A DNA stretch of 64,000 nucleotides from an uncultured beta proteobacterium (GTDB taxonomy: Bacteria > Pseudomonadota > Gammaproteobacteria > Burkholderiales > SG8-41). Where the stretch lies: NCBI GenBank assembly GCA_903905655.1, contig CAIVHG010000035.1, positions 722-64,721 on the forward strand, in the 5' to 3' direction. Each line of letters begins with the position of its first letter. The stretch's first letter is position 1. This document shows positions 4,637 to 19,152 of the stretch, one piece after another. Made by a program: the position numbers and the translations under genes. Under the pieces are notes generated by a model. It worked only from the letters and a program-made list of their open reading frames with translations, searched no databases and was not told the origin of the DNA.

Positions 4637-6904
4637 TCAAAACTCCGCCAGAAACGTGGCCATCATGCTGCGCGGCGGCTGCCAGGAGAAGGTGTCCCCG
4701 GCATTAGGCTGTCCGTATGCCGCGCTACCCGCGGTCTTGTTGACGGCGCTGACGGCGATGATGTCCTCGTGGTTGAAGAGATTGAACACATTGAGTTGCA
4801 GCTTAACGTTCTTTGCCCCCCAACCCAGGTTGGTGAAGCGGTAGGCGACGCTAAAATCGGCCGACGAATACGCGGCCAGCGGGTAGCCCTGATCGTCGAG
4901 CACGTACGTGCTGCCGACCCGCTTTTGCACCAGCGAACCGCTCCAGGGACCGGATTTGTAGAGCACCCCCACCGCAGTCGTATTGTCGGGCACGCCCGCA
5001 ATCTGCAGCCCGCTCGCCTTCGAGGCGGCGCGGTTCAGCGAACCGTTTGCATAGAGCGAGATTCCGTTGCCGAAGGCGTAAGTCAATTGCGCTTCGACGC
5101 CCTTGTAGACCACGCCACCCTGGTTGTAGAACACAGGCTGAGAAGAACTACTCCCGGGGACCGTAGCGATCTTGTTGTCGAAATCGATGTAGTAAAGATC
5201 CGCGTCGAATGCAATCTTGTCGGACTGATGCACCACGCCCCACTGGTAATTAGTCGAAGTCTGCGGGGAAACCGACGATGCATCCGCGTTGGAGCTCTGA
5301 TAGCTGCTGATATCGGGCACCAGCATGCCCTTCGCGTACTGCATATAGGTCGACCACACGGGGCTGATGCGGTAATTGGCCGCCAGGAACGGCAGGGTTG
5401 CGCTGAAATCCTTGGAGATGTTCTGCGGGATGCGCGCCGTCTGGTTGACGCTCGCGTCGATCGTCAGATTCCAGTGCATGTATTTGAGGCCCGGCGTCAC
5501 TTTCAGAGCAGGAGTGACATTCCATTCGTACTCGATGAATGGCTGGTACTGGGTCCAGCCCGATTTCTGCTCGTATTTGACGTTGTTGATGCTGGCATTG
5601 ACGCCGGGAACGGCCGCCTGGTCATAGTTAGGCTGGTTGTTGAACAGGTTGTAATCGTAGAAGGCACGGTGAGTGAAGTTCTTCTCGACCCACGCGCCGA
5701 AGCGCACCAGGCCAGATTCGGTTTTCCGCGACGTCTTGAAGATGTCGCCCCACACCGCGTATTCATTGTTCTTGGTGCCGCCGGGCATTTGTCCAGTGAC
5801 GGTAGCGCCGTTCGCAATCTTCACCGATCCGGTGCCGGTCGTGAGATCCGTCGCAGTCGTGGTGAGCGTGTTGTTGGTGTAGTTGTAGTAATAGGCGTTG
5901 TTGTCGATCCCCCATCCCGAGCCCAGGTCGCTCTGAAAACGCACGTAGTTCATCGCAGTGGACTTGGTGGCCTTGTTGTAGCCAAAATAATTGGCCTTCG
6001 TCGGGTCGATGCCCAGCGCGTAATTCTTGCCGAGCGCCTGCGCCTGAGCGAGCGTAATGCCCTTCTCGTTGTCGTTCTGCTGATACCAGTTATGGTTGAT
6101 ATTGAGGTTCGCCGTGATCAGCGAGCGATCGCCGACCGGCTTCTCGAACTTGAGCATCAGGTTCTGGCCCTGGATTTTGCTGTAGGTCCGATAGCCATCG
6201 CTGGTGATCTGCTGCGCGTTGATCGCCAGCGCCGCATCCCCGTAATTCTGCAGCGTGCCGGAGTCGTAGCGCGCTCCCATCAGCTTGGTATTCCAGCTGC
6301 CGTAGGAGAAGGTCGGCGCGAAGGTTCTTTCGCGCGCCAGATCGCGCGAAAACAGGCCAATGGTTCCCCCGAAGGTCGCGGCGCCGAAATTGCTGGCCTG
6401 TCCTGGGCCGCGCTCGATTTCGACGCGGCCGATCACCGCAGCGGGAAAGTAGGCAGTGGAATGGTGCGTTGGGCCGTTGGTATCGCCAAACGGAATACCG
6501 TCGAACGTAATGTTGAATTCGCCGTCCTTGAAGCCGCGCAGCCCGTTCTTGGTTTCGCCGAGCCCCGGCCCGTTGGGAGAGATCCCCAGCGTGACACTGG
6601 GCGCGATGACGGCAATGGTGGAATAATCGCCCACCGGCGATCTGGACTCCTCGATGAAGGAGCGATTGATGATCGATTTCGGCTGAGTCGCTTCCAGGGT
6701 AGTCTGCGTGGGCGCCGCCGCAGCCGCCCGCGAGGCCGCGGCTCCGGTTGCACTTTGATTTAAAGCTGCGCCTGTCGCGCTAGTCCCCACGGTACCGAGA
6801 TCGATCGCGTCTGCGGCGAACGCCTGGCTGACTGCAATGCTCAAAACTGAGGCGACTGCGACGGAATAGCGAAACCGCACCCGCGTTGCGACTGGCTTTT
6901 TCAA
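4637..6904 (-). CDS. TonB-dependent receptor
   Basis: TTG start after GGAG, signal peptide, plug motifs (LRGF..FNITFDGIP, VEIERGPG), NVFNLFN and C-terminal Phe. Confidence 0.92.
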   Translation of the reverse strand: MKKPVATRVRFRYSVAVASVLSIAVSQAFAADAIDLGTVGTSATGAALNQSATGAAASRAAAAAPTQTTLEATQPKSIINRSFIEESRSPVGDYSTIAVIAPSVTLGISPNGPGLGETKNGLRGFKDGEFNITFDGIPFGDTNGPTHHSTAYFPAAVIGRVEIERGPGQASNFGAATFGGTIGLFSRDLARERTFAPTFSYGSWNTKLMGARYDSGTLQNYGDAALAINAQQITSDGYRTYSKIQGQNLMLKFEKPVGDRSLITANLNINHNWYQQNDNEKGITLAQAQALGKNYALGIDPTKANYFGYNKATKSTAMNYVRFQSDLGSGWGIDNNAYYYNYTNNTLTTTATDLTTGTGSVKIANGATVTGQMPGGTKNNEYAVWGDIFKTSRKTESGLVRFGAWVEKNFTHRAFYDYNLFNNQPNYDQAAVPGVNASINNVKYEQKSGWTQYQPFIEYEWNVTPALKVTPGLKYMHWNLTIDASVNQTARIPQNISKDFSATLPFLAANYRISPVWSTYMQYAKGMLVPDISSYQSSNADASSVSPQTSTNYQWGVVHQSDKIAFDADLYYIDFDNKIATVPGSSSSQPVFYNQGGVVYKGVEAQLTYAFGNGISLYANGSLNRAASKASGLQIAGVPDNTTAVGVLYKSGPWSGSLVQKRVGSTYVLDDQGYPLAAYSSADFSVAYRFTNLGWGAKNVKLQLNVFNLFNHEDIIAVSAVNKTAGSAAYGQPNAGDTFSWQPPRSMMATFLAEF

Positions 6905-7946: not shown

Positions 7947-8025
7947 TTGCCTGGTTCGTGAGATATGCGCAGCGGGGTATGCGCCAACTTTGCGCCCGCC
8001 TTGGGGAGATCAAGAGCCATCAGCG

Positions 8026-9615
8026 ATGAATGGGATTCCGCATAACGGCAAGCCGATGCTGAGTACACGACGCACCTGGAGTACGGCACTCGCTGTTGCC
8101 GCCTGCGCCATCGCCGCGTGCGCCCCCCTTTCCCCGGACCATCCGGCATCCGCAGAATCGCGCGCCGAGCAAGTACAAAGCGTCGAGCCGCTGCAGTTGC
8201 TCAACCGCCTGACCTGGGGCGCGAGCTGGGCATCGGCGCAGCAGATCTCTGCGCTCGGCAGCGCGCGGTTCCTGGAACAGCAGCTTCATCCCGCGCCCGC
8301 CGCTATGCCTCCCGAGATCGCGGCCCAGATCGACGCCATGACGATCTCGCAGCGCCCGGCCACGCAACTCGCGATCGATCTCGAGCAGCGCCGCATCCAG
8401 GCCAATGCGATCGCAGATACTGAAAGCAAGCAGGCCGCGTTGCAGGCGTATCAGCAGGAACTGACACGGCTTGGGCGCGAGGCCGCGGCGCGCTCGCTGC
8501 TGCGCGCGCTCTACTCGCCCAATCAACTGCAGGAGCAGATGACCTGGTTCTGGATGAACCACTTCAACGTCTATCTGTTCAAACGCGACATCCGCGCGCT
8601 AGTCGGCGATTACGAGGAGCATGCGATACGCGATCATGCGCTCGGCCGCTTCCGCGACCTCCTGGCGGCGACCGTGCATCATCCGGCGATGCTGCGTTAT
8701 CTGGACAACGAGCAGAACGCGGCGGGCCGTCTCAACGAAAACTATGCGCGCGAGCTGATGGAACTGCACACCCTGGGTGTGGACGGCGGCTACACCCAGT
8801 CCGATGTGCAGGAACTCGCGCGCATCCTGACCGGCCTTGGGGTCAACGTGAATCGCGGCAATCCGAACGTGCGCGCCGCGCTGGCCGGCCAGTACGTGCG
8901 CGATGGGTTGTGGGAATTCAATCCGGGCCGGCACGATTACGGCGACAAGGTCCTGCTCGGGCAAACGGTCAAAGGGCGGGGGCTTGCCGAGATCGACGAA
9001 GCGATCGATCGCCTCGCACGGCACCCCGCCACCGCGCGCTACATCAGCCGCAAGCTCGCCACGTATTTCTGCTGCGACGACCCCGCGCCCGAACTCGTGG
9101 CACGCATGGCCCAGGCGTTCCAGGCGAGCGATGGCGACATCGCGGCGACGTTGAAGACACTCTATGCATCCCCCGAGTTCGCGCGCTCGCTGGGCCGCAA
9201 GTTCAAGGACCCCATGCACTACGTCGTGTCCGCGCTGCGGCTTGCATATGACGACAAACCCATACTCAACACGGCACCGATCATCAACTGGCTCAACCGC
9301 ATGGGCCAGCCGCTCTACGCCCACCTCACGCCCGACGGCTATTCGATGACTCAGGAAGCGTGGGCGAGCCCCGGCCAGATGACGACGCGCTTCGAGATCG
9401 CGCGCGCAATCGGGGCGAGCAATGCGGGGCTGTTCCGCGGCGAAGGCCCGCAGCCGGCCGAGCGTCCGGCGTTCCCGCAGCTCGCCAACGCGGTATATTA
9501 CGGGTCGCTGATCAAGACCATTGGCCCCGCCACACGCGATGCCCTGGAGCGGGCGGCGTCGCAGCAGGACTGGAACATGTATCTGCTTGCCTCCCCAGAA
9601 TTCATGAACCGCTGA
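8026..9615 (+). CDS. DUF1800 family protein (probable lipoprotein)
   Basis: QLQEQMTWFWMNHFNV, HPAMLRYLDN and NENYARELMELHTLG motifs; lipobox-like IAAC. Start uncertain (8026 or 8056). Confidence 0.9.
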   Translation: MNGIPHNGKPMLSTRRTWSTALAVAACAIAACAPLSPDHPASAESRAEQVQSVEPLQLLNRLTWGASWASAQQISALGSARFLEQQLHPAPAAMPPEIAAQIDAMTISQRPATQLAIDLEQRRIQANAIADTESKQAALQAYQQELTRLGREAAARSLLRALYSPNQLQEQMTWFWMNHFNVYLFKRDIRALVGDYEEHAIRDHALGRFRDLLAATVHHPAMLRYLDNEQNAAGRLNENYARELMELHTLGVDGGYTQSDVQELARILTGLGVNVNRGNPNVRAALAGQYVRDGLWEFNPGRHDYGDKVLLGQTVKGRGLAEIDEAIDRLARHPATARYISRKLATYFCCDDPAPELVARMAQAFQASDGDIAATLKTLYASPEFARSLGRKFKDPMHYVVSALRLAYDDKPILNTAPIINWLNRMGQPLYAHLTPDGYSMTQEAWASPGQMTTRFEIARAIGASNAGLFRGEGPQPAERPAFPQLANAVYYGSLIKTIGPATRDALERAASQQDWNMYLLASPEFMNR

Positions 9616-9632
9616 CTGAACGAGGTGCCATC

Positions 9633-10817
9633 ATGAATCGCCGCGATCTGCTCAAGTATCTTGCGGGCGCCCCGCTCGCCGCCTCGGCGCTGCAACTATA
9701 TGCCGCGCCTGCCGCCAGCACAAAGCTGTTGGTGGTATTCATGCGCGGCGGTTACGACGCGGCCAATTTCCTGGTGCCGGTTTCCAGCAGCTACTACTAC
9801 GAAGCGCGTCCCAACATCTCGGTGCCGCGGCCGGGCCAGGGAACGAACGCAGCACTGCCGCTTGACGCGGACTGGGGATTGCATCCCGCGCTGCGCGACA
9901 CGCTATACAAGCTCTATGAAAAAGGCCAGGCCGCGTTCATCCCCTTTGCCGGAACCGACGACCTCTCGCGCAGCCATTTCGAAACTCAGGACAGCATCGA
10001 GCTCGGGCAGGCGCTCGACGGCAGCCGCAATTACGGCTCCGGCTTTCTGAACCGGCTTACCGAAACACTGACCGGTGCCCGCGCCATCGCGTTTACCGAT
10101 CAGTTGCCGATCGCCATGCGCGGCGGCGTGCGCGTTCCCAACATGGCTCTGAGATTCGTGGCCCGGCCCGGGGTCGACACACAGCGCAGCGCCGTCATTG
10201 CATCCATGTACCGCAATACTGCACTCGGCGCGCAGGTCGAGGAAGGCTTCGCCGTGCGCAACGAGGTGATGCAGGATCTGGCGGCCGAGATGGAAGCGGC
10301 GAGCCGCAATGCGATCACAACCCGAGGCTTCGAACTGGAAGCACGCCGCATTGCGAAACTGATGCGCGAGCGATTCAATCTCGGGTTCGTGGACGTCGGC
10401 GGCTGGGACACGCATGTAGGTGAAGGCGGCGCCAACGGCTACCTCGCGAGCCGTCTGGAAGAACTCGGCCGCGGACTCGCCGGCTACGCGGATGAGATGG
10501 GGCCGGCATGGCGCGACACCATCGTCGTCGTGATCAGCGAATTCGGGCGCACCTTCCGCGAAAACGGCAACCGCGGCACCGACCACGGCCACGGCAGTGT
10601 CTACTGGGTGCTGGGCGGCGGCATGCGCGGCGGCCGCATCGCGGGAGAACAGCAGCGCATCGCGCAGAAGACGCTGTTCCAGAACCGCGATTACCCGGTG
10701 CTCAATGAATACCGCGCTGTGTTCGGCGGACTGTTTGCGCGGCTCTACGGCCTCGGACCGTCAGAGATCGCGCGCATATTCTCAGGCGTACAGGCCAAGG
10801 ACATCGGCCTGATTTAA
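9633..10817 (+). CDS. DUF1501 family protein with Tat signal
   Basis: MNRRDLL Tat motif; FMRGGYD, SRSHFETQ, GGWDTH, SEFGRT..ENGNRGTDHGHG motifs; usual partner of DUF1800. Confidence 0.92.
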   Translation: MNRRDLLKYLAGAPLAASALQLYAAPAASTKLLVVFMRGGYDAANFLVPVSSSYYYEARPNISVPRPGQGTNAALPLDADWGLHPALRDTLYKLYEKGQAAFIPFAGTDDLSRSHFETQDSIELGQALDGSRNYGSGFLNRLTETLTGARAIAFTDQLPIAMRGGVRVPNMALRFVARPGVDTQRSAVIASMYRNTALGAQVEEGFAVRNEVMQDLAAEMEAASRNAITTRGFELEARRIAKLMRERFNLGFVDVGGWDTHVGEGGANGYLASRLEELGRGLAGYADEMGPAWRDTIVVVISEFGRTFRENGNRGTDHGHGSVYWVLGGGMRGGRIAGEQQRIAQKTLFQNRDYPVLNEYRAVFGGLFARLYGLGPSEIARIFSGVQAKDIGLI

Positions 10818-10844: not shown

Positions 10845-11477
10845 CTAATTCAGCGCGAGCGGATTCGGCGTGGGGTCGGCGATCTTGGTGAGCAGGTTGC
10901 GATCCCTGTGGTGAAATGGCTCGGACTTGCCGCGGATCATGAGCACCGTGTCCTCGTCATAGGACCAGGTGCCGTCAGGGTTGATGCTCACCTTGATGCG
11001 GAACTCCACCGTCTTGAACGCGTATTCGAGAAACGGCGTGGAGCAGATGCCGTAGCTTTCCGCGCCTTTGGTCGCGACCAGCTCGAACTCCTTTGAATCC
11101 GCGGATGCCGTGCCCACTGCCATCGCGACCTGGGCGCGCGGAATGGTGAGCGTCTGGATGACAGTCCCGGTGGCGGGTTCCCAAAGCCAGTATCCGACCT
11201 GATCGTGGTAGGTCTTGGACTGGCCCGGCTTGACCATGTGCGTGTGATACCTGAGGCCGTAGAACAGCTGCGGCCCATTGGTCTGCGGATCGATCGGCTG
11301 CAGCTCGATGCGCTCGACGAACGCCTGCTTTTTCGGGCCGTCCGCCTTGGGCTTGACGTCGAGGCCGCGCGCCCCCTGCCAGATGCCCGCCATGCCCGTC
11401 AGCGGGCCGAGATTGCGCAGCGTATCGACATCGACGTCCGACGGCTCTGTATAAATATCCTCGGAAAACTCCTCCAT
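10845..11477 (-). CDS. Nitrobindin/FABP-like (DUF1794) heme-binding beta-barrel protein
   Basis: LGPLTGMAGIWQG, LFYGLRY and YHDQVGYWLW motifs; C-terminal His in PFHHRD. Confidence 0.8.
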   Translation of the reverse strand: MEEFSEDIYTEPSDVDVDTLRNLGPLTGMAGIWQGARGLDVKPKADGPKKQAFVERIELQPIDPQTNGPQLFYGLRYHTHMVKPGQSKTYHDQVGYWLWEPATGTVIQTLTIPRAQVAMAVGTASADSKEFELVATKGAESYGICSTPFLEYAFKTVEFRIKVSINPDGTWSYDEDTVLMIRGKSEPFHHRDRNLLTKIADPTPNPLALN

Positions 11478-11626: not shown

Positions 11627-13303
11627 TCAATAGCTTCGACCGTTGTGCGTTTCCCCGTGACAGTTCAGATAGCACTGCCGGGTCACCGTATTGACGTAGA
11701 GCTTCGCGGCGGCACCAGTGCCCACCGGCGTATTGTCGGTGGTGGAAAGATTGATCAGCCGGCTGTTGAAGGTTGCGTTGCCCTGCGTGCCGCTGATCCC
11801 GTGCGGATCATGGCAGGCCTTGCAGCCATAGCGCAGATGTTCAGACCGGTTGTGCGGCGACCCGCTGGTGACGGTCGATTGGCGGTGGCACTTGTAGCAG
11901 ATGTCGCCGGCAGTCGGCGTGCTGTTGGTCGCATACGGCCGTTCCAGCAGCCGCACATTTGTAGATCCGTGCGGGCCGTTGGGTCCCGTTCCGCCGGCGC
12001 CCGGCCCGGCATTGTTGTTGTGGCAGTCTTCGCACTTGACGATGCTCGATATCGTCCACGGTGCGAGCAGGCTCGGCACGTTCGCGCTCTTGCCGGGTCC
12101 TGCGACCGGATGATACGACGGATTGAGCGTGCTGAATTCGAGCCGCGTATTGCTCTGCGCGATCTGGCGTGCGATGAGCGGCGCGGGCTGGCCGGGGCTG
12201 TCGGCATGGCAGCGAAAGCAGATTTGATACTCTGCAGTGGCGGGATTGATCGCGGCACCATTGATATCGATGCCGCGCACTCCGATGAGCGAGCCCGGCA
12301 GCGTTCCCGCCGTGGCATTGCTGGCGTGCGGATTGTGACAGTCCACGCACTCGACGTGACGCGACTGCGCCACCGCGGATTCGATCGGGTCGTGCACGCC
12401 GGTGGTGGCCGCCACCGGATGGATTGAAGATTTAGCGAACTCGCTCTGGACATTTTTCGCCGCTACGTTGCCGTTGTGGCAAGGGTAGCAGTTGTTTTCC
12501 TCGACAGCGGTGTTGAGGTTCCATTTTTTGCCGCCGGCAGCGTGCGGCCGATGACAGCTCTCGCACGCGTTTGCCGAAACCGTGGTCCAGCTGGTGTGCG
12601 GCCAGGGATTGGTGCCGCTGCCGTTCCAGGTCTTGGTCGACAGCCGGTGGTCGCTCTGACTCCAGTAATTCTTCAGGTGGCAGGTCTGGCACAGCGCGGA
12701 CCCCTGATTCGACATCACCAGAAACTTTCCATTGCTATCGTCATGCGGATCGTGGCACGCTGTGCACTGCAGCTGACCTGCGGCATCGAGCTTCACGCGC
12801 CCCGTGAGCAGGGAAGGTGCCGCAAGCTCGCCGCGCGCGGCAGCGAGCGCCGCCGAGTAAGTGATCGACACCGGGTGATCGTCCGAAAGATCCGTGCCGA
12901 TGGCGCTGGCCGAGCCGGTGGGCATAGTCGTCACCCCGCCTGCCATCGCGATCGGCGTGGCGCGATTCAGCACATCGCCCAGCGCTATGGTGCCGTCGTG
13001 GCAGCTCAGGCACAACAGCGAAGCGCCATTGGGCTGACCGGCGTTGCCTTTGGCGGTGGAACTCGTGTACGGAATATAAGTCGCGCCTGGTGTGCGCCGG
13101 TTCCACAGCTGAGCGCTCGGTGCATTGTTATGCGGTGCATGGCAGAACACACAAATCTGCGGTTCCGACGCGCCTTTGACAGTCCCCGGTCCGCTCACCG
13201 ACAAATTATGTTTGCTCGTCGCCAGCAAACCAGCCGCAGCCGCCGGGAAAATCACGCACACTGCAACGACGATGGCGGCGAGCCACCGCAGCCAGCGACT
13301 CAA
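11627..13303 (-). CDS. Exported multiheme cytochrome c, 11 CxxCH plus 1 CxxxCH, with an N-terminal OmcE-like tetraheme module
   Basis: Signal peptide; motifs CVFCH, CLSCH, CTACH, CQTCH, CESCH, CYPCH, CVDCH, CFRCH, CEDCH, CYKCH, CKACH, CYLNCH. Confidence 0.93.
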   Translation of the reverse strand: MSRWLRWLAAIVVAVCVIFPAAAAGLLATSKHNLSVSGPGTVKGASEPQICVFCHAPHNNAPSAQLWNRRTPGATYIPYTSSTAKGNAGQPNGASLLCLSCHDGTIALGDVLNRATPIAMAGGVTTMPTGSASAIGTDLSDDHPVSITYSAALAAARGELAAPSLLTGRVKLDAAGQLQCTACHDPHDDSNGKFLVMSNQGSALCQTCHLKNYWSQSDHRLSTKTWNGSGTNPWPHTSWTTVSANACESCHRPHAAGGKKWNLNTAVEENNCYPCHNGNVAAKNVQSEFAKSSIHPVAATTGVHDPIESAVAQSRHVECVDCHNPHASNATAGTLPGSLIGVRGIDINGAAINPATAEYQICFRCHADSPGQPAPLIARQIAQSNTRLEFSTLNPSYHPVAGPGKSANVPSLLAPWTISSIVKCEDCHNNNAGPGAGGTGPNGPHGSTNVRLLERPYATNSTPTAGDICYKCHRQSTVTSGSPHNRSEHLRYGCKACHDPHGISGTQGNATFNSRLINLSTTDNTPVGTGAAAKLYVNTVTRQCYLNCHGETHNGRSY

Positions 13304-14322
13304 GCGTCGCCCCCGATATACCGAAACACCTGGACGCGGCTGTTGTATGAATCGGCAACGTAGATTAAATCGTCGTCGCCAATGTAGATGCCCGCCGGCA
13401 GCCAGAATTCTCCGCGCTCGCGGCCGAGCGCGCCGAATGCGAGAAGCAGCCTGCCTGCAGTGTCGAATATCTGCACCGCATTGAACAGCGCATCGACAAC
13501 GTAGATGTGTCCATAGCGATCGGTGGCCACGCCCTTCTGGCGCAAATGATCCCCGCTGCCGTCGCCCAATTGCCCAAACTTTCCCAGATAGCGACCGCCA
13601 TCGTCGAAGATCTGGACGCGAAAATTCATGGCATCAGTTACATAGAGCTTGCCCTGCGGCGTGCGCCAGATGAGCGTCGGATAGTTGAATTCACCGTCGC
13701 CCGCGCCGCGGCGCCCGAAACTGTACGCGAGTTTTCCATTGCGCTCGAACACCTTGACGTCGTGCGCAGTGGTGTCCACCACGTAAATCCGTCCGCTCCT
13801 TGCATCGACCGCGATCCCGGTCGGCTGCCTGAGCGGTGCGCTCAGTGCGACGCGGGAAATCACATGTTCGCGCGGCCGCATGACCGACACGGTGGCGAGC
13901 GCAGAATCCGTGACGTAGACCTCTCCCGCCGCTCCACGTGCGAGCCCCACGGCAGACGGCAGTGCGCCGCTCTCAGGACGCAGCAATTCGTAATCGCCAT
14001 TTGCGGTGTCAAAGCGATGCACGCCTTGTGCGCCCGGGTCTGCTACATAAAGCATTGGCCCGACCGCGAGCACTGCCATCGGCCGCACCAGCCGTGAGTC
14101 GCTGCCGCCGAACAGCGCGTCCGCGACGCGCTGCAGGAAACCCTTGGTGATACCGAGATCGTCGGGGCGCGCAATCGTCTCGACGTACGCGATCCGCGGC
14201 GCCGCCGGCGCCGCCGGCCACACCAGCGGCACCTTGTCCTCGGCTTTATGCACTGTTGGCGCGCATGCAGCCAGCGCCAGCAGCATCCAGATCACACAGG
14301 CCTTGTGTAGACGAATGCTCAT
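13300..14322 (-). CDS. NHL-repeat six-bladed beta-propeller lipoprotein
   Basis: Lipobox LAAC; repeats such as QPTGIAVD..IYVVD, GEFNYP and YVADSYNSRVQVF; ATGA overlap with the 12-heme gene. Confidence 0.9.
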   Translation of the reverse strand: MSIRLHKACVIWMLLALAACAPTVHKAEDKVPLVWPAAPAAPRIAYVETIARPDDLGITKGFLQRVADALFGGSDSRLVRPMAVLAVGPMLYVADPGAQGVHRFDTANGDYELLRPESGALPSAVGLARGAAGEVYVTDSALATVSVMRPREHVISRVALSAPLRQPTGIAVDARSGRIYVVDTTAHDVKVFERNGKLAYSFGRRGAGDGEFNYPTLIWRTPQGKLYVTDAMNFRVQIFDDGGRYLGKFGQLGDGSGDHLRQKGVATDRYGHIYVVDALFNAVQIFDTAGRLLLAFGALGRERGEFWLPAGIYIGDDDLIYVADSYNSRVQVFRYIGGDA

Positions 14323-14324
14323 GC

Positions 14325-16343
14325 TCAGAATTCTCTGCGGCCAACAAGCTGGATCAGGTTGCGCACGCGCTCGGTGTTGCCCTGAGTTTCGCGCGAGCGC
14401 CCGATATCCAGCGTGAGGCTCGCCTTGCGATAGCGCCATTGGCCCTTGATCGAGGCCGCCATGCGGCTGCGCGGCAACACGCCGCCGATGTCCCGTTCGT
14501 AGCTCGCATCCGCGGACAGGTCGAGTCCGAACCAGCGCTGCGACCAGTACCTGAAGTCGTACGCGGTGAGATTCACATTCTGCGTGGAGTTCGCGTAGTC
14601 GACCCGGGTGCGGCGCATCCCGACGCGCACGTTGCCGGTGCCGAAGAACGGGTCTTCGCTCTGCACGTAGACGTCGCTTGCCACGCGCGTATAGGGAGAG
14701 ATCGCTTCGCGCCGGTCTTCGCTCTCGAAACTGCCACCGACCGAAGATTCGAACGGCGTCTTCAGTGGCATATCCGCCCGCACCCCATACAGGCTACCGT
14801 GCACCGTATTGAGCTGAAACGTGGGACTGCCCGAGGTCAGACGCGGCGTGGACTCAATAAAGCGCAAATACACGCTCACGTAGTTGCGCAGGCTCCAGTT
14901 GATGTTCAGCGTCTGATCGGACTGTGCATAGGCGTAAGTGCCCCCGACGTCGTAGCTGTAGTCCACCAGCACTTCCTGGCCGTCGACGATGTTGCCCCCG
15001 ATCAGCCGCTGCAAGCGCATCTCCAGGCCGACCACGGTGATTGTGTAATCACTGCCTTCCACAAAGGACTGCGTGCGCGTGTTATTGCTGACGAGCACGC
15101 TGCCGCCGACGACATGCTGGTGCGAAAGTGGGGAATACGCGATTCCCGTCAGCGTAACGCGTTCTCCGATCACTGCGGTCTGGTTTGCCACGGCCTTCTG
15201 CTCGCGCAGATCGCGGCGCACGGCGTAGTTCACCTGCACGCTGCCCAGCGGAAGCGCATGCTGGTAGCGCCCCGATGCGTCGACCCCAGTTGTGCTCGAG
15301 GTGTACTGGCTGGTCCGGTTGTTTTCGCCATGCACGCTTACGGTCGCCGTGAGATCCTTGTGCGGCCAGTAGCTTGCGCCAGCGCTAACGGCATTGACTA
15401 CAGAGGAAAGTGCTCCCTGATTGCTCGAGTTGTAGTTGTACGTCGCGAAACTCTGCAGCTGTTCCGAGTGCCGGCCGCGCACATCCAGAAATGCTCTGGC
15501 GTCCCGGCGATCGGGCAGTGCGCTCTGCCCAGTCACGTAGCTCTGGGTATTCAATGCGAGAAGATTGACGAGATCGAATTGCCGGTTCGCGCCGAACGTG
15601 AATCGTGAATCGGCGCTCACGCTCTGCGTCGTGGAGTTGCTCGCCTGGACGGGAAGATTAGGGCTGCCGCTGATCGATGCCTGCTTCGTGCTCTGATATT
15701 GCACCTGAGTCGCACCCAGCGCACCGAACGACCGTGTTGCCTTGAAGTTGAGGCGGTCAAGCATATCGTCGATGATGCGGTCTACCCCCCGGCCCTGGGA
15801 ATGCGCACGCGTTGCGTCCACATACACAGGCACCGGCGTCACCGGCCCCAATATTGACATATCAAAACCGTAGCGCGTGTTCTGCTGCGTGAGGACCTGG
15901 CCAGGCGAGACACTCAGGGTAGGATTCAGATGATCGTAGAACACCGATCCTCGATAAGGCTTGTCGCGCAGTATCGTCGCCCGGCCGGTCAGGTTGTAGA
16001 GCGCGCCCTTCGACTGATCGCTACTGGTATCGCTCGCGAAGCTCTGACGCTGCAACACCGGTCCGCCTCCGATGTCGAAGCTCAGCAGGCTCGGATGGTA
16101 TGCATAGCTGTGCGTCATCAGAAACAACTCCTGCCGCAGATCCGCCTGCGCCTGGCGCGATCGCACCGGGGTTCCGCCGGCTGCCGGCTGCCCAGTCACA
16201 AACTCGTCACGCAAATAGCGTATCGTCGCGTAACCTTCCATGGCCGTGAAACGAAACGGCACGATGTCCTCGGCACGACATGAATCCGGCGGCGCCATGA
16301 GAAGTGCCAAGCCGCCGCAGGCCAGGAGCACCGCTGCTTGCAT
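14325..16343 (-). CDS. Large outer-membrane beta-barrel (porin of a porin-cytochrome type complex)
   Basis: Hydrophobic signal segment, many alternating Tyr/Ser/Thr/Arg beta-strands, C-terminal Phe (GRREF); sits among cytochrome genes. Start uncertain (16343 or 16466). Confidence 0.75.
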   Translation of the reverse strand: MQAAVLLACGGLALLMAPPDSCRAEDIVPFRFTAMEGYATIRYLRDEFVTGQPAAGGTPVRSRQAQADLRQELFLMTHSYAYHPSLLSFDIGGGPVLQRQSFASDTSSDQSKGALYNLTGRATILRDKPYRGSVFYDHLNPTLSVSPGQVLTQQNTRYGFDMSILGPVTPVPVYVDATRAHSQGRGVDRIIDDMLDRLNFKATRSFGALGATQVQYQSTKQASISGSPNLPVQASNSTTQSVSADSRFTFGANRQFDLVNLLALNTQSYVTGQSALPDRRDARAFLDVRGRHSEQLQSFATYNYNSSNQGALSSVVNAVSAGASYWPHKDLTATVSVHGENNRTSQYTSSTTGVDASGRYQHALPLGSVQVNYAVRRDLREQKAVANQTAVIGERVTLTGIAYSPLSHQHVVGGSVLVSNNTRTQSFVEGSDYTITVVGLEMRLQRLIGGNIVDGQEVLVDYSYDVGGTYAYAQSDQTLNINWSLRNYVSVYLRFIESTPRLTSGSPTFQLNTVHGSLYGVRADMPLKTPFESSVGGSFESEDRREAISPYTRVASDVYVQSEDPFFGTGNVRVGMRRTRVDYANSTQNVNLTAYDFRYWSQRWFGLDLSADASYERDIGGVLPRSRMAASIKGQWRYRKASLTLDIGRSRETQGNTERVRNLIQLVGRREF

Positions 16344-16473
16344 TGCACGGCCGCCTGCTGCGTTGCCTGCAAGCGAACAGCGCAACCTAGAGGCGTCCAG
16401 CGCTCGTTGCTTAATCGCCACGCCGCCGCTCCGCTGTTGCCGGTATCCATCCCCTTCCCCGTCCAATGCATCG

Positions 16474-17619
16474 TCACCGCGCAGTATTGGTATTGGCCGC
16501 CTGTGTGGTCACAGATTTGGCGTCGGGTGGATAGCTCATGCCGTTCATTTTTCCGAATCCGTATACGTCGACCTTGTTCGGACCAAACTGGCTGACGACG
16601 AAAATCAGGTAATCGATGGCAAACCTCGGGTCTGCGTAGCGGCGGAACAGTTCCACATTCTTGTAGTCGATCGAAACGCCTGCCGGAAGGTTGAGGCCCT
16701 CAGCGCCTGCACCGGGCTGACCAAAGTAGAGCAGCAGCCTGCCGTCGTTGTCGAATATCTGCACGTTCTCGAATGCCGAATCCCCGACATAAAGACGGCC
16801 AGAACGGTCGATCGCAATGCCTTTGGGACGCACGAACTTTCCGACTTCAGCGCCCAGATCTCCGTAGATGCGCACGAGCTTGCCTTCGGCCGTAAAGCGC
16901 TGCACTCTGAAATTGCTGGTATCGACGACGTAGACATCGCCATCCGGGCCGACGGCGATATTGGTGGGATGAAACAGCTCGCCGCGCTCGGACCCCGCGG
17001 TACCGAACTTGAATTGCGGCTTGCCCGTACGCTTGTCGAGCACCACCACCTGATGATGCTTGATGTCGACGACGTAGAGGCGCTCCCCGGAAATTACCGT
17101 GTCCACCGGTTTGAATTCGCCGTCCGCGCCATACGCATACTGGAAGCGATCGCTGCCGTCGTAGACCAGAACCTGGTCGCGCCCGGTATCCGTCACGTAC
17201 TTCGTGCCGTCCGCATCGATCCTGACGTTGATCGGCCGCTGCATGCGCCCATTGCCCACTCCCGAAAGCAGCGTGAACCGATGCTGCACGAAATCGAAAA
17301 CCGCAAGGCCCGATGCACGGCTGTCAGCCACGTAGAGCTTGCCTTCGTACATGGCCACGCCGTACGGCTGTTTGAGGCGCTGCACGTTCTGATCATCGCC
17401 AAGCACAAACTTTGCGAGGCTGCTATCCGCCGCATTCACGTCGCGGTCGCTCATGATCGTGGTCAGATGCTGGATGCGCGGCGCATCCGGCAACGCCGGA
17501 TAAAAAACGGCGCCGGGCGCCGTGACAACCTTCGGCCCCGGTGCCGCGCAAGCTGCAACCAGCGACACCGCGAGCGCAATCAGGGCGCGGCGCAAAACTC
17601 TACTCTCAAACATCGTCAT
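16474..17619 (-). CDS. NHL-repeat beta-propeller lipoprotein
   Basis: GGAG RBS before ATG 17619; lipobox VAAC; repeats QPYGVA..LYVAD, HPTNIAVGPDGDVYVVD, RPKGIAID..LYVGD. Confidence 0.9.
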   Translation of the reverse strand: MTMFESRVLRRALIALAVSLVAACAAPGPKVVTAPGAVFYPALPDAPRIQHLTTIMSDRDVNAADSSLAKFVLGDDQNVQRLKQPYGVAMYEGKLYVADSRASGLAVFDFVQHRFTLLSGVGNGRMQRPINVRIDADGTKYVTDTGRDQVLVYDGSDRFQYAYGADGEFKPVDTVISGERLYVVDIKHHQVVVLDKRTGKPQFKFGTAGSERGELFHPTNIAVGPDGDVYVVDTSNFRVQRFTAEGKLVRIYGDLGAEVGKFVRPKGIAIDRSGRLYVGDSAFENVQIFDNDGRLLLYFGQPGAGAEGLNLPAGVSIDYKNVELFRRYADPRFAIDYLIFVVSQFGPNKVDVYGFGKMNGMSYPPDAKSVTTQAANTNTAR

Positions 17620-17824
17620 TAGGTCTCCAGGGGTTATGACACTGGGCGGATGTTCGCTGCACGAACCGTGGGCACCGGTAAACGCCGCAAAAGCAGCGCA
17701 CGCCCGCAGGATGAACTCGAAACATCTACCATCGGCGTTCCGATCGGCGCATCGCCACACGCACCTGCGTGCGGCAAGTAAACGCAGGGCAATGCACCGC
17801 TCGCAACTGATCTCTGGAATAGCC

Positions 17825-18478
17825 CTACTTGTTGTGGCAGGCGAGGCAGATGGTGCTTCCGGCCTCCGGCAGCTTCACCAGGTGACTGGTGCCAGCGGTG
17901 AAGGTGTTATGGACGTCGTGACACGACGAACATTCCATCTTGCCGTTGTAGAGCAGGGTTGCGGTTATGGTACCGGTTTTGGTCTGGCTTCCCGATCCAA
18001 TGGTCACCGACTTCGTGCTGGGATCGAACAGGGCGCCGTCCGCCGTAGCGAGCGCGGTGTTGTAAGTGAATCCGATCGGATGATCATCCGCCAGCGAGGT
18101 GCCTATGTTATTTACAGCGGAGATCATCGTAGTGCCCGTATTGCCGCCGAAGCTGTCTATGGCGACCGTGCCGTCGTGGCAGGACAGGCAAAGCTTCGAA
18201 AGTCCGCTCGGCTGCCCCATGGGGCCGGCGTTGAGCGTCGGGCTGCTGTACACCGTATAGGTCTGCGTGGAGTTGGCATGACTCCACAACGGCGCATCGG
18301 TCACGCTGGTATCGGATTTGTGCGTCACGTGGCAGGCCACGCAGATGCGCCCGCCCGACCAGGCCTTGGTCGTGAAGTCATGCTGTGACCCTGTGATCGT
18401 GCCTGCGACACAGACACCCGCGCCCAGAAGGAACATCAACCCCGCCAGTACCGCCCATCTCGTAGCTTTCGCTCTCAT
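17825..18478 (-). CDS. OmcE-like exported tetraheme cytochrome c (candidate nanowire subunit)
   Basis: GAGGAG RBS, Sec signal; SQHDF..ICVACHVTH..PLW..YSS..SKLCLSCHDG..IGTSLADDHP..MECSSCHDVH..AGSTICLACHNK follows the motif order I recall for Geobacter OmcE. Confidence 0.85.
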   Translation of the reverse strand: MRAKATRWAVLAGLMFLLGAGVCVAGTITGSQHDFTTKAWSGGRICVACHVTHKSDTSVTDAPLWSHANSTQTYTVYSSPTLNAGPMGQPSGLSKLCLSCHDGTVAIDSFGGNTGTTMISAVNNIGTSLADDHPIGFTYNTALATADGALFDPSTKSVTIGSGSQTKTGTITATLLYNGKMECSSCHDVHNTFTAGTSHLVKLPEAGSTICLACHNK

Positions 18479-19152
18479 TATTTTCTCCTCACCATTTCCA
18501 TTTGCACACCACGCAATACCCTTCTTCAAGGACATTGCTCCACTACTTTTCCACTACGGCCGTATGGTTTTCTTTTTACGATCGAGTGTCAACGTGCAAA
18601 AGTCACATGCGCCGCGTTATTTTTACAATTCGCTAAATTGTTCGATGAACAGCGTTATGACATTTACATACCCGCAACCGCATCAACAACGATCATTAAT
18701 CGCATTGGCGATCGCACATCATCACCGCGAAGCATCGCGCCACGCTTGAATGCAATCACACACACCGCCCCCGCTTCTCCATACACGACAAATTAGCGCT
18801 GCGTAGCCGTTAGATGAATGAGCATCTCATAGCTCGACAATCGGGGTTCCTTTAGCCGCCATCAACAGCCTCGTCGCTCGACAACAGTTGTAGATTTTCT
18901 TCTGTTCATTTCTCGTCAGTCGTGAATTAGTTCCTAACGATCGTGACCTATCTGCATTTAACTTCGACACCAAATGTGGATCACCACACTACGGCAGTGA
19001 TTGAAGTAGCCGCGAACAAGAAGGAAAGACCAGAATGCCAGCCAGCCCGCTCGGGCTTACACTGAGCGCGCTCTGCCCGCGCATGCGCGTGATGTCTGCA
19101 GCCGCTGCAGCGAAAGCATGCAGTCATCGTCATTTCCCTCGGTATCGATGCA

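Follow-up and report, generated by a model that had tools for sequence, protein, structure and literature searches.

The start, the end and the cell wiring of cytochrome nanowires are an open question. In OmcE and OmcS, successive subunits are joined by ligation across the interface, a histidine from one binding a heme in the following one (PMC9473688). For OmcE wires, the anchor has been expected to be an OmcE-like protein with a ninth, extra, histidine, encoded alongside the subunit, none being seen in the OmcE operons, and the tip to be a protein similar to OmcE with more hemes; OmcE homologues near a porin and a β-propeller were selected as potential nanowire formers (PMC13712944). A second body of work concerns the uet cluster, whose core comprises the tetraheme UetA, the barrel UetC, the NHL proteins UetH and UetI and the undecaheme UetJ (bioRxiv 10.1101/2022.05.06.490989). 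Uet is treated as a porin-cytochrome complex, with UetJ predicted to be its linear heme wire (bioRxiv 10.1101/2022.05.06.490989; PMC10734462). A putative UetJ has also been reported in Gallionella and Leptothrix, and a possible polymerisation of Uet cytochromes was already raised in the Tenderiales preprint (bioRxiv 10.1101/2022.05.06.490989).

The locus described here lies in a 64,000-nucleotide stretch (the window) of contig CAIVHG010000035.1 (assembly GCA_903905655.1), from an uncultured beta proteobacterium. It is a cluster of five genes in the order tetraheme cytochrome, NHL lipoprotein, β-barrel, NHL lipoprotein and 12-heme cytochrome, and the subject of this report is the last of these. 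The gene itself is unremarkable: as a UetJ-type gene it belongs to a family that is very large and already has a name. Three things were not found in the literature searched: the reading of the protein as a fusion of an OmcE fold with an MtrA-like octaheme, the existence of split counterparts, and a predicted head-to-tail contact with the tetraheme. We lean, though only slightly, towards the view that the 12-heme protein is the outer-membrane core of an OmcE/Uet-type porin-cytochrome system and the base, anchor or terminator of a tetraheme chain. It fits the anchor description of PMC13712944, and would add a predicted membrane-crossing rod to the expected anchor features.

An OmcE-type module at the N terminus of a 12-heme cytochrome

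The gene and its parts are as follows.

11627..13303, minus strand: 12-heme c-type cytochrome gene (UetJ-type), 558 amino acids (open reading frame, translation, motif count, 79-sequence alignment, Pfam)
13226..13303, minus strand: signal peptide, residues 1 to ~26, without lipobox (hydrophobic core, then AAAAG)
12671..13225, minus strand: OmcE-type tetraheme module, residues 27-211 (sequence, fold, histidine conservation)
11630..12670, minus strand: octaheme rod, residues 212-558, with seven CxxCH and one Cx3CH (predicted fold MtrA-like)
11657..11674, minus strand: CYLNCH (CxxxCH), residues 544-549, proposed twelfth site of heme attachment

The start codon is TTG and overlaps the stop of the upstream NHL gene; the stop codon lies at 11627-11629. 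From the translation, the signal peptide is of the Sec type, with its cleavage site probably near residue 26. In every orthologue, too, the protein opens with a hydrophobic leader, after which comes x-[ST]-K-H-N-L-S. A script count places CxxCH motifs at residues 51, 98, 180, 205, 247, 272, 319, 362, 424, 469 and 494. The protein contains 29 histidines, and methionine is restricted to M1, M120, M127 and M197. Pfam recognises the doubled-CXXCH domain PF09699 (E 2e-28), together with cytochrome c7/c3-type and MtrC/MtrF-type domains. The count agrees with a preliminary description, made from the letters alone, of four N-terminal CxxCH motifs, seven more and a terminal CYLNCH, and all of the N-terminal motif series that it listed (SKHNL, ICVFCHAPH, QLWNR, LLCLSCHDGT, IGTDLSDDHPV, QCTACHDPH and GSALCQTCH) is in the translation. 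The Cx3CH motif is itself already in print, since '11 and 12' CXXCH/CX3CH/CX4CH motifs are listed for putative UetJ proteins in the Gallionellaceae pangenome (PMC10734462).

The same description had likened the N-terminal region to the tetraheme gene at 17825..18478 and to OmcE. Both likenesses hold. BLASTP aligns residues 6-211 of the 12-heme protein with residues 7-217 of the tetraheme (77 of 228 positions identical, 34%, E 2e-29). In a search of all PDB chains, the OmcE filament subunit 7tfs_A matches residues 12-211 (E 6.1e-30) and 9yuq_N matches more weakly (E 1.2e-22), these two being the sole sequence matches. The 9yuq entry is taken as the OmcE bundle of D. soudanensis, because, according to a 2026 paper in mBio, a model of that structure has been deposited. 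An AlphaFold2 model of the 12-heme protein, built from a 79-sequence alignment, has a predicted local distance difference test score (pLDDT) of 79.3 and a predicted template modelling score of 0.75; within the module, pLDDT is low in parts (residues 58-88). With this model as query, Foldseek returns 7tfs as the only significant PDB match (E 1.2e-6, TMt 0.62). VIA, a search independent of Foldseek, superimposes model residues 31-210 on OmcE 7tfs with Z 9.1 over 167 aligned residues (root-mean-square deviation 3.7). The ~185 N-terminal residues of the mature protein are thus, by sequence and predicted fold, a true OmcE-type module.

The module carries its CxxCH motifs at C51, C98, C180 and C205 and four further invariant histidines, H32, H58, H143 and H187. 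OmcE of G. sulfurreducens (7TFS) and of D. soudanensis (9YUQ) likewise has four CxxCH motifs and four further histidines, and shares the fold of residues 27-211; the short motif 'LWNR' is common to the module and both solved proteins, whereas the separate tetraheme has 'LWSH'. The difference lies in what follows. OmcE is a homopolymer subunit of ~200 residues that ends after its fourth heme motif, but the 12-heme protein continues for 347 residues and eight more heme sites. The module being fused to these eight hemes, its heme-4 end would be occupied in cis, and a filament would therefore not propagate in that direction.

In the genome from which the window comes (a 2.55-Mb assembly, 69.7% complete), this module and the stand-alone tetraheme are the only OmcE-like modules. 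In the literature searched, no description was found of an OmcE-like module fused to a larger cytochrome, and the passages of the Uet literature covered make no mention of an OmcE-like N-terminal module.

Conservation and distribution

The 80 best-scoring loci were fetched, and 78 of them contain a complete open reading frame, L024 and L061 being dropped as they are cut by contig ends. Each of the 78 complete orthologues has exactly 11 CxxCH motifs and, in a constant position near the C terminus, a single Cx3CH; an additional Cx4CH occurs in the glycine-rich tail of one sequence. In the 79-sequence alignment, all 24 heme cysteines and 26 histidines are invariant, and the residues of the twelfth motif, C544, C548 and H549, are so in 79 of 79. 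H553 is present in 75 and H236 in 62 of these sequences. Twelve of the invariant histidines belong to the CxxCH and Cx3CH motifs themselves, as proximal ligands, and the other 14-15 are possible distal ligands for 12 hemes. This surplus of two or three would fit the donation of one histidine to a partner.

The family is large. A word-indexed search gave 6938 proteins at E <= 0.001 among 8000 candidates scored, and an exhaustive search of 1.84 billion representatives gave 5793 at E <= 0.001, of which 528 cluster representatives remain at E <= 1e-30. Among the best 150 family representatives, the majority match colinearly over nearly the full length. A scan of species genomes matched at least 600 stretches, at least 565 of them confirmed relatives. 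The 80 top-ranking loci are spread over Beta- and Gammaproteobacteria, Verrucomicrobiota, Bacteroidota, Calditrichota, Nitrospirota, Ignavibacteria and other groups; isolates are represented by Aromatoleum tolulyticum ATCC 51758 and Ramlibacter lithotrophicus RBP-1. Further scans added relatives in Planctomycetota and in a Geomonas genome, which also encodes a second full-length 12-heme paralogue (G001:C6:665-2416). In three longer family representatives (P0139, P0202 and P0231; 919, 1055 and 1764 amino acids) the family region lies at the C-terminal end.

The cluster DNA was found in sequencing runs labelled lake water and freshwater metagenome. Six DNA runs from three studies (lake water metagenome) contain at least half of the query words; among the runs matching the cluster DNA, no RNA run is listed.

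The stand-alone tetraheme and a predicted head-to-tail contact

17825..18478, minus strand: stand-alone OmcE-like tetraheme (UetA-type), 217 amino acids (PDB matches, 54-sequence alignment)

The tetraheme matches the same two PDB chains (7tfs_A, E 9.8e-22; 9yuq_N, E 4.5e-19) more weakly than does the 12-heme protein. Like the OmcE subunit, it is ~200 residues long and ends right after its fourth CxxCH. Nine histidines are conserved in an alignment of 54 sequences, among them the N-terminal H33 (54 of 54). The ninth is H67, the histidine of 'LWSH', which is present in 53 of 54 and stands where the solved OmcE proteins and the N-terminal module have 'LWNR'. It could be a spare ligand, or could serve to complete heme 4 of its own chain.

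The mature 12-heme protein (residues 27-558) and the mature tetraheme (residues 25-217) were modelled together in three runs. The interaction score ipSAE was 0.67, 0.67 and 0.64, where the best control gave 0.00. Among reference cases, 58 of 80 complexes of solved structure attain the mark used, as do 2 of 110 mismatched pairs; the models were built without hemes, and the contact may echo the OmcE filament. At least 98% of the contacts are common to the three runs, and the pLDDT of the partner is at least 84. On the 12-heme side the interface comprises residues 27-28, 35, 37, 48-66, 173-175 and 187-188, and on the tetraheme side residues 79-81, 125-133, 149, 186, 205-212 and 217. In the confident contacts, the fourth heme motif and C terminus of the tetraheme, together with its DDH loop (125-133), meet the N-terminal arm of the 12-heme protein (27-37); the same parts also meet residues 48-66, that is, the first heme motif and the histidine that follows. 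The predicted arrangement is head-to-tail, with the heme-4 end of the tetraheme against the heme-1 end of the 12-heme protein. Its score counts in favour of binding, but may reflect likeness to the solved filament, of which both chains are homologues. It is also the contact seen between subunits of the OmcE filament. The preliminary description had held that its idea of a filament primer or anchor would fall if models lacked a head-to-tail heme contact; in the three runs, modelled without hemes, the two chains do meet head-to-tail.

The predicted octaheme rod and the barrel

14325..16343, minus strand: large outer-membrane β-barrel, 672 amino acids from M42 of the listed open reading frame, ending ...RREF (AlphaFold2 model, Foldseek)

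According to the preliminary description, the remaining eight hemes would dock in the neighbouring barrel, and the predicted folds are in keeping with this. In the VIA search, model residues 141-518 are colinear with MtrA (6r2q_A, chain residues 84-333), with Z 9.0, a root-mean-square deviation of 4.5 and 27% identity, 219 of 265 residues being aligned; the next rows are OmcS (Z 4.8) and an S-layer undecaheme cytochrome (Z 4.3). The likeness is suggestive and no proof, because best Z values of 7-8 are also reached by models without true relatives. Foldseek with the whole 12-heme model found no match for the rod part. An invariant histidine, H219, lies ten residues after the fourth heme motif.

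The barrel is modelled with confidence (pLDDT 90.7) as an all-β protein with ~28-30 strands, as counted from the DSSP list. Foldseek ranks MtrB first among its structural matches (6r2q_B, E 3.7e-9, TMq 0.41), ahead of TonB-dependent receptors, pilus ushers and LptD. By sequence it matches no Pfam family and has no PDB relative. As predicted, it is a very large barrel and resembles MtrB only loosely. At residues ~400-465 the barrel is broken by a short inserted stretch of small strands, which could be a plug or cap; residues 425-511 of the listed open reading frame give a sub-threshold match to the phage tail-tube model NF052337 (E 5.6e-8; 32.5 bits, where the cut-off is 60).

The closest structural precedent is MtrCAB (6R2Q). 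MtrA is a rod of closely packed bis-histidine hemes, as is predicted for the rear part of the 12-heme protein, and both genes lie next to that of a large barrel. However, the MtrA family has 10 hemes as opposed to 12 here, MtrB has no sequence likeness to the window barrel, the place of the partner MtrC is taken in the window cluster by an OmcE-like tetraheme, and two NHL lipoproteins are present in addition. With an MtrA-like rod and an MtrB-like barrel, an alternative would be a plain 1:1:1 complex of the MtrCAB type, in which the rod traverses the barrel, one tetraheme forms the cap at its end and nothing polymerises; the tetraheme would then be a terminal oxidoreductase facing iron, minerals or electrodes. 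This is in line with the treatment of Uet as a porin-cytochrome complex. One tetraheme also suffices for the complex model, and the nine histidines of the tetraheme equal the count proposed for a non-propagating OmcE-like protein (PMC13712944). Yet the tetraheme keeps its N-terminal H33 throughout and ends after heme motif 4, as does filament-forming OmcE, and the neighbourhood of a porin and a β-propeller is that by which potential nanowire formers among OmcE homologues were picked (PMC13712944). We regard such a complex as possible, if on the doubtful side.

A second alternative concerns orientation. The N terminus of MtrA is periplasmic, and the colinear alignment (141-518 to 84-333) could be taken to mean that the OmcE-like module and the tetraheme are periplasmic too and exchange electrons with periplasmic carriers, with contact at the cell surface made by the C-terminal part, where the Cx3CH heme and a small β-sheet lie. 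NHL lipoproteins usually face the periplasm, and the C-terminal motif and tail are highly conserved, as would suit such a topology. Against it, the solved OmcE homologues are extracellular filaments (PMC13712944; PMC9473688), and localisation tools, a weak method, place UetA and UetJ outside the cell (bioRxiv 10.1101/2022.05.06.490989). Moreover, a periplasmic tetraheme adaptor seems redundant, because homologues (at least 40% identity) of a 24-heme c7-type protein capable of spanning the periplasm lie beside the cluster in 16 of the 80 loci. We consider an inverted topology unlikely.

Gene cluster and comparison with Uet

The two remaining genes of the cluster encode NHL proteins.

13300..14322, minus strand: NHL_b, β-propeller lipoprotein, likely start M40 of the listed open reading frame, lipobox LAAC (Pfam NHL, E 2.3e-26)
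16474..17619, minus strand: NHL_a, β-propeller lipoprotein, likely start M48, lipobox VAAC (Pfam NHL, E 2.7e-19; synteny)

Synteny was followed by tblastn with the window proteins as queries across the 80 loci, 61 of which have long flanks. The 12-heme gene is accompanied by genes for a separate tetraheme, a barrel and two or more NHL proteins in 48 of the 80 loci, and in 47 of the 61 with long flanks; in most of the other 14 long-flank loci, either no barrel could be detected or the upstream sequence is missing. In 76 of 80 loci the 12-heme gene has one NHL neighbour or more, and the position of NHL_b directly upstream of the 12-heme gene recurs in related loci. The same cluster is also found in Planctomycetota and in the Geomonas genome. 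The Geomonas locus (L083) has the full cluster set together with a 449-residue cytochrome and a small five-heme cytochrome, and its 12-heme homologue ends in CSSNCH. It was considered as a canonical OmcE cluster and rejected as such: its tetraheme is only distantly related to solved OmcE (9yuq, E 6.4e-10; 7tfs, E 2.4e-4), and the cluster is hence a paralogous, OmcE-like one.

The preliminary description had been reminded of the Uet undecaheme cytochromes, and the comparison supports it: 11 CxxCH motifs, a tetraheme, a barrel and two NHL proteins are as in the published uet list. UetJ of Candidatus Tenderia electrophaga, from the cluster uetABCDEFGHIJ, has 11 CxxCH (12 with Cx3CH), a doubled-CXXCH/cytochrome c3 annotation and a signal peptide, as here; the assignment of the window protein to UetJ is by analogy of architecture and descriptors, and not by the Tenderia UetJ sequence, since among the loci listed by three scans none was from Tenderia. 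The two clusters differ in gene order. In addition, the Uet cluster has a peptidyl-prolyl isomerase (PPIase; UetB), the triheme c7 proteins UetD, UetE and UetG and the cupredoxin UetF, none of which lies within 11627-18535 of the window; a PPIase is present in the Geomonas locus and in the split-type loci described below. From the other side, published OmcE clusters also hold a large barrel and β-propeller lipoproteins, like the window cluster (PMC13712944). The cluster type has thus already been drawn in print from both the Uet and the OmcE sides.

Split tetraheme-octaheme pairs in Desulfuromonadia

Among 401 Desulfuromonadia genomes sampled, 204 have matches to the 12-heme protein at E <= 1e-20, many of them full length. 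Many others cover only residues ~237-565, in open frames of ~380 amino acids. In all seven such loci that were fetched (L257-L263), an NHL gene is followed by a tetraheme of 278-286 amino acids with 'LWNR', and then by an octaheme. The octaheme has 377-383 residues, its own signal peptide, seven CxxCH motifs and, as in the window protein, a C-terminal C-Y-L-x-C-H-G..H-N..S-Y; the octaheme of one locus was aligned with residues 222-558 of the window protein and is 30% identical (E 1e-47). These pairs are colinear with the two halves of the window protein, but are encoded by two genes, each with a signal peptide.

A quick maximum-likelihood tree of 110 rows (54 N-terminal modules, 54 stand-alone tetrahemes and two split-type tetrahemes), in which long branches are uncertain, puts modules and stand-alone tetrahemes on opposite sides of one branch, with values of 87 and 93 in the Shimodaira-Hasegawa-like approximate likelihood ratio test; the two split-type tetrahemes join the modules (93). 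On these sequence comparisons, the window protein is best described as the fused form of a tetraheme-octaheme gene pair, and its N-terminal module as an old paralogue of the neighbouring tetraheme and no recent copy of it. Fusion of adjacent genes is classical indirect evidence of two parts working in contact.

The split pairs (for example L258:5601-14894) adjoin a SurA-like PPIase, a family-2 glycosyltransferase and the NHL gene on one side; on the other lie genes for type II secretion system F and E proteins and a PilM-like protein, and the region is downstream of clpX and lon. These neighbours suggest that the split cytochromes are exported by the type II secretion system. By extension, the 12-heme protein might itself be secreted, as the distal tip of a tetraheme filament or as a self-polymerising cytochrome, the barrel then being an export pore only. 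The tip asked for in PMC13712944 is indeed an OmcE-like protein with more hemes, and the histidine surplus could allow ligation between molecules. An MtrA-like rod in strict pairing with a large barrel fits insertion better, however, and the polarity of the complex model leaves the far end of the rod free, its location unspecified. Secretion in this form appears quite improbable.

Each of five complete Desulfuromonadia genomes has one octaheme homologue, namely the one adjacent to the type II secretion genes. A split form within the canonical OmcE operon had also been considered, and was dropped since in these five genomes no octaheme homologue (E <= 1e-6) lies beside the other OmcE-like genes. 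A back-translated pattern from the OmcE chain, aimed at the omcE locus of G. sulfurreducens, gave 0 matching stretches.

A proposed anchor for a tetraheme chain

Under the slightly favoured reading, in which the 12-heme protein is the outer-membrane core and anchor, it would be exported through Sec and loaded with 12 bis-histidine hemes, the twelfth on the C-terminal Cx3CH. Its rear two thirds would form the MtrA-like rod, presumably inserted into and sheathed by the MtrB-like barrel, with the two NHL lipoproteins acting as assembly or scaffold factors. The OmcE-fold front third would be a built-in socket on which the heme-4 end of the tetraheme docks, against the heme-1 end of the module. The N-terminal arm, through its invariant H32, may complete the last heme of the tetraheme, while the fourth heme of the module would be completed in cis by the rod, through H219 or H236. 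The outcome would be a continuous chain of at least 16 hemes. Which histidine crosses between OmcE subunits is deduced here from sequence, and the outward orientation of the module and the polymerisation of the tetraheme are likewise presumed. With the eight OmcE histidines, the invariant H219 and eight more hemes, the 12-heme protein could occupy only a single, fixed end of a chain of tetrahemes, which would make it a base, anchor or terminator and no repeating subunit. CsgB as the nucleator of curli and the terminator in chaperone-usher pili provide analogies for a component installed first and one installed last.

Several observations weigh against this reading. Both modelled chains are OmcE homologues, so the complex score may be a memory of the 7TFS filament, and would then express likeness to that filament and not binding of these two proteins. 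If H67 completes the last heme of the tetraheme in cis, cross-ligation and polymerisation might be unnecessary. The Z of 9.0 against MtrA is only modestly above the chance range, and the DmsE/MtrA family model TIGR03508, which finds residues 243-371 with E 1.6e-13, scores 50.7 bits, far below its cut-off of 192.2. The barrel matches many other large barrels as well as MtrB (315 at E <= 0.001). By analogy, colinearity with MtrA would put the N-terminal module on the periplasmic side. Near the split pairs no barrel was detected with the queries used, and it is type II secretion genes that adjoin them. Finally, in the five Desulfuromonadia genomes the other OmcE-like genes lack an octaheme neighbour, and it is therefore not obvious that the scheme can be carried over to the canonical OmcE operon. 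A canonical operon without an octaheme partner agrees with PMC13712944, in which no anchor or tip candidate is reported there.

A wider proposal is that UetJ-type dodecahemes in general are the missing membrane anchor or terminator, or a curli-like nucleator, of OmcE-type nanowires, and that the five-gene clusters, which occur in well over ten phyla, are nanowire machines and no mere porin-cytochrome conduits. The dodecahemes would be MtrA-like rods threaded through a porin, and the module would join the last tetraheme by histidine-heme cross-ligation, and the fused and split forms would record the co-evolution of a filament subunit with its base. This proposal is tentative and we think it rather unlikely. 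Should the anchor idea be right, it would bring together two so far separate literatures, that on the Uet complexes of iron and cathode oxidisers and that on OmcE nanowires in metal reducers, and would widen the expected distribution of nanowires. The anchor idea is directly testable, as the family includes the cultured A. tolulyticum and R. lithotrophicus. Should it be wrong, what remains is a well-conserved gene for an electron conduit in the outer membrane of a lake-water betaproteobacterium.

Neighbouring genes

Beyond the tetraheme gene, a divergent set of three genes follows.

19153..23127, plus strand: membrane protein, 24-heme cytochrome and oxidoreductase (Pfam, motif and hydropathy counts)

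The membrane protein has 296 residues, ~5 hydrophobic segments and several histidines; the cytochrome has 604 residues and 24 CxxCH motifs in c7-type repeats; and the third protein is a 4Fe-4S plus flavin oxidoreductase. The start of this last gene is probably later than listed, because the listed open reading frames 20018-21832 and 21571-23127 overlap. From its adjacency, the set is a probable inner-membrane and periplasmic feeder of the system.

In a Thioalkalispiraceae locus (L039:7220-16114), genes for two further multiheme cytochromes, a membrane protein of the cytochrome b561 type and a third NHL protein come after the 12-heme gene. A 788-residue doubled-CXXCH cytochrome and a cbb3-type monoheme cytochrome are also encoded there. 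Together, these genes would give the locus a more complete route for electrons to the inner membrane.

Directly downstream of the 12-heme gene, at 10845-11477 on the minus strand, lies a gene for a THAP4-like (nitrobindin-type) heme-binding β-barrel. It is not counted in the system and is probably unrelated, because a counterpart was found in 0 of the 80 related loci.

Further out, there is a pair of DUF1800 and DUF1501 genes upstream of the cluster, and two TonB-dependent receptors with TonB-like genes stand on either side of the region.

7990-10817, plus strand: DUF1800/DUF1501 pair
4637-6904, minus strand: TonB-dependent receptor region
25062-27527, minus strand: TonB-dependent receptor region

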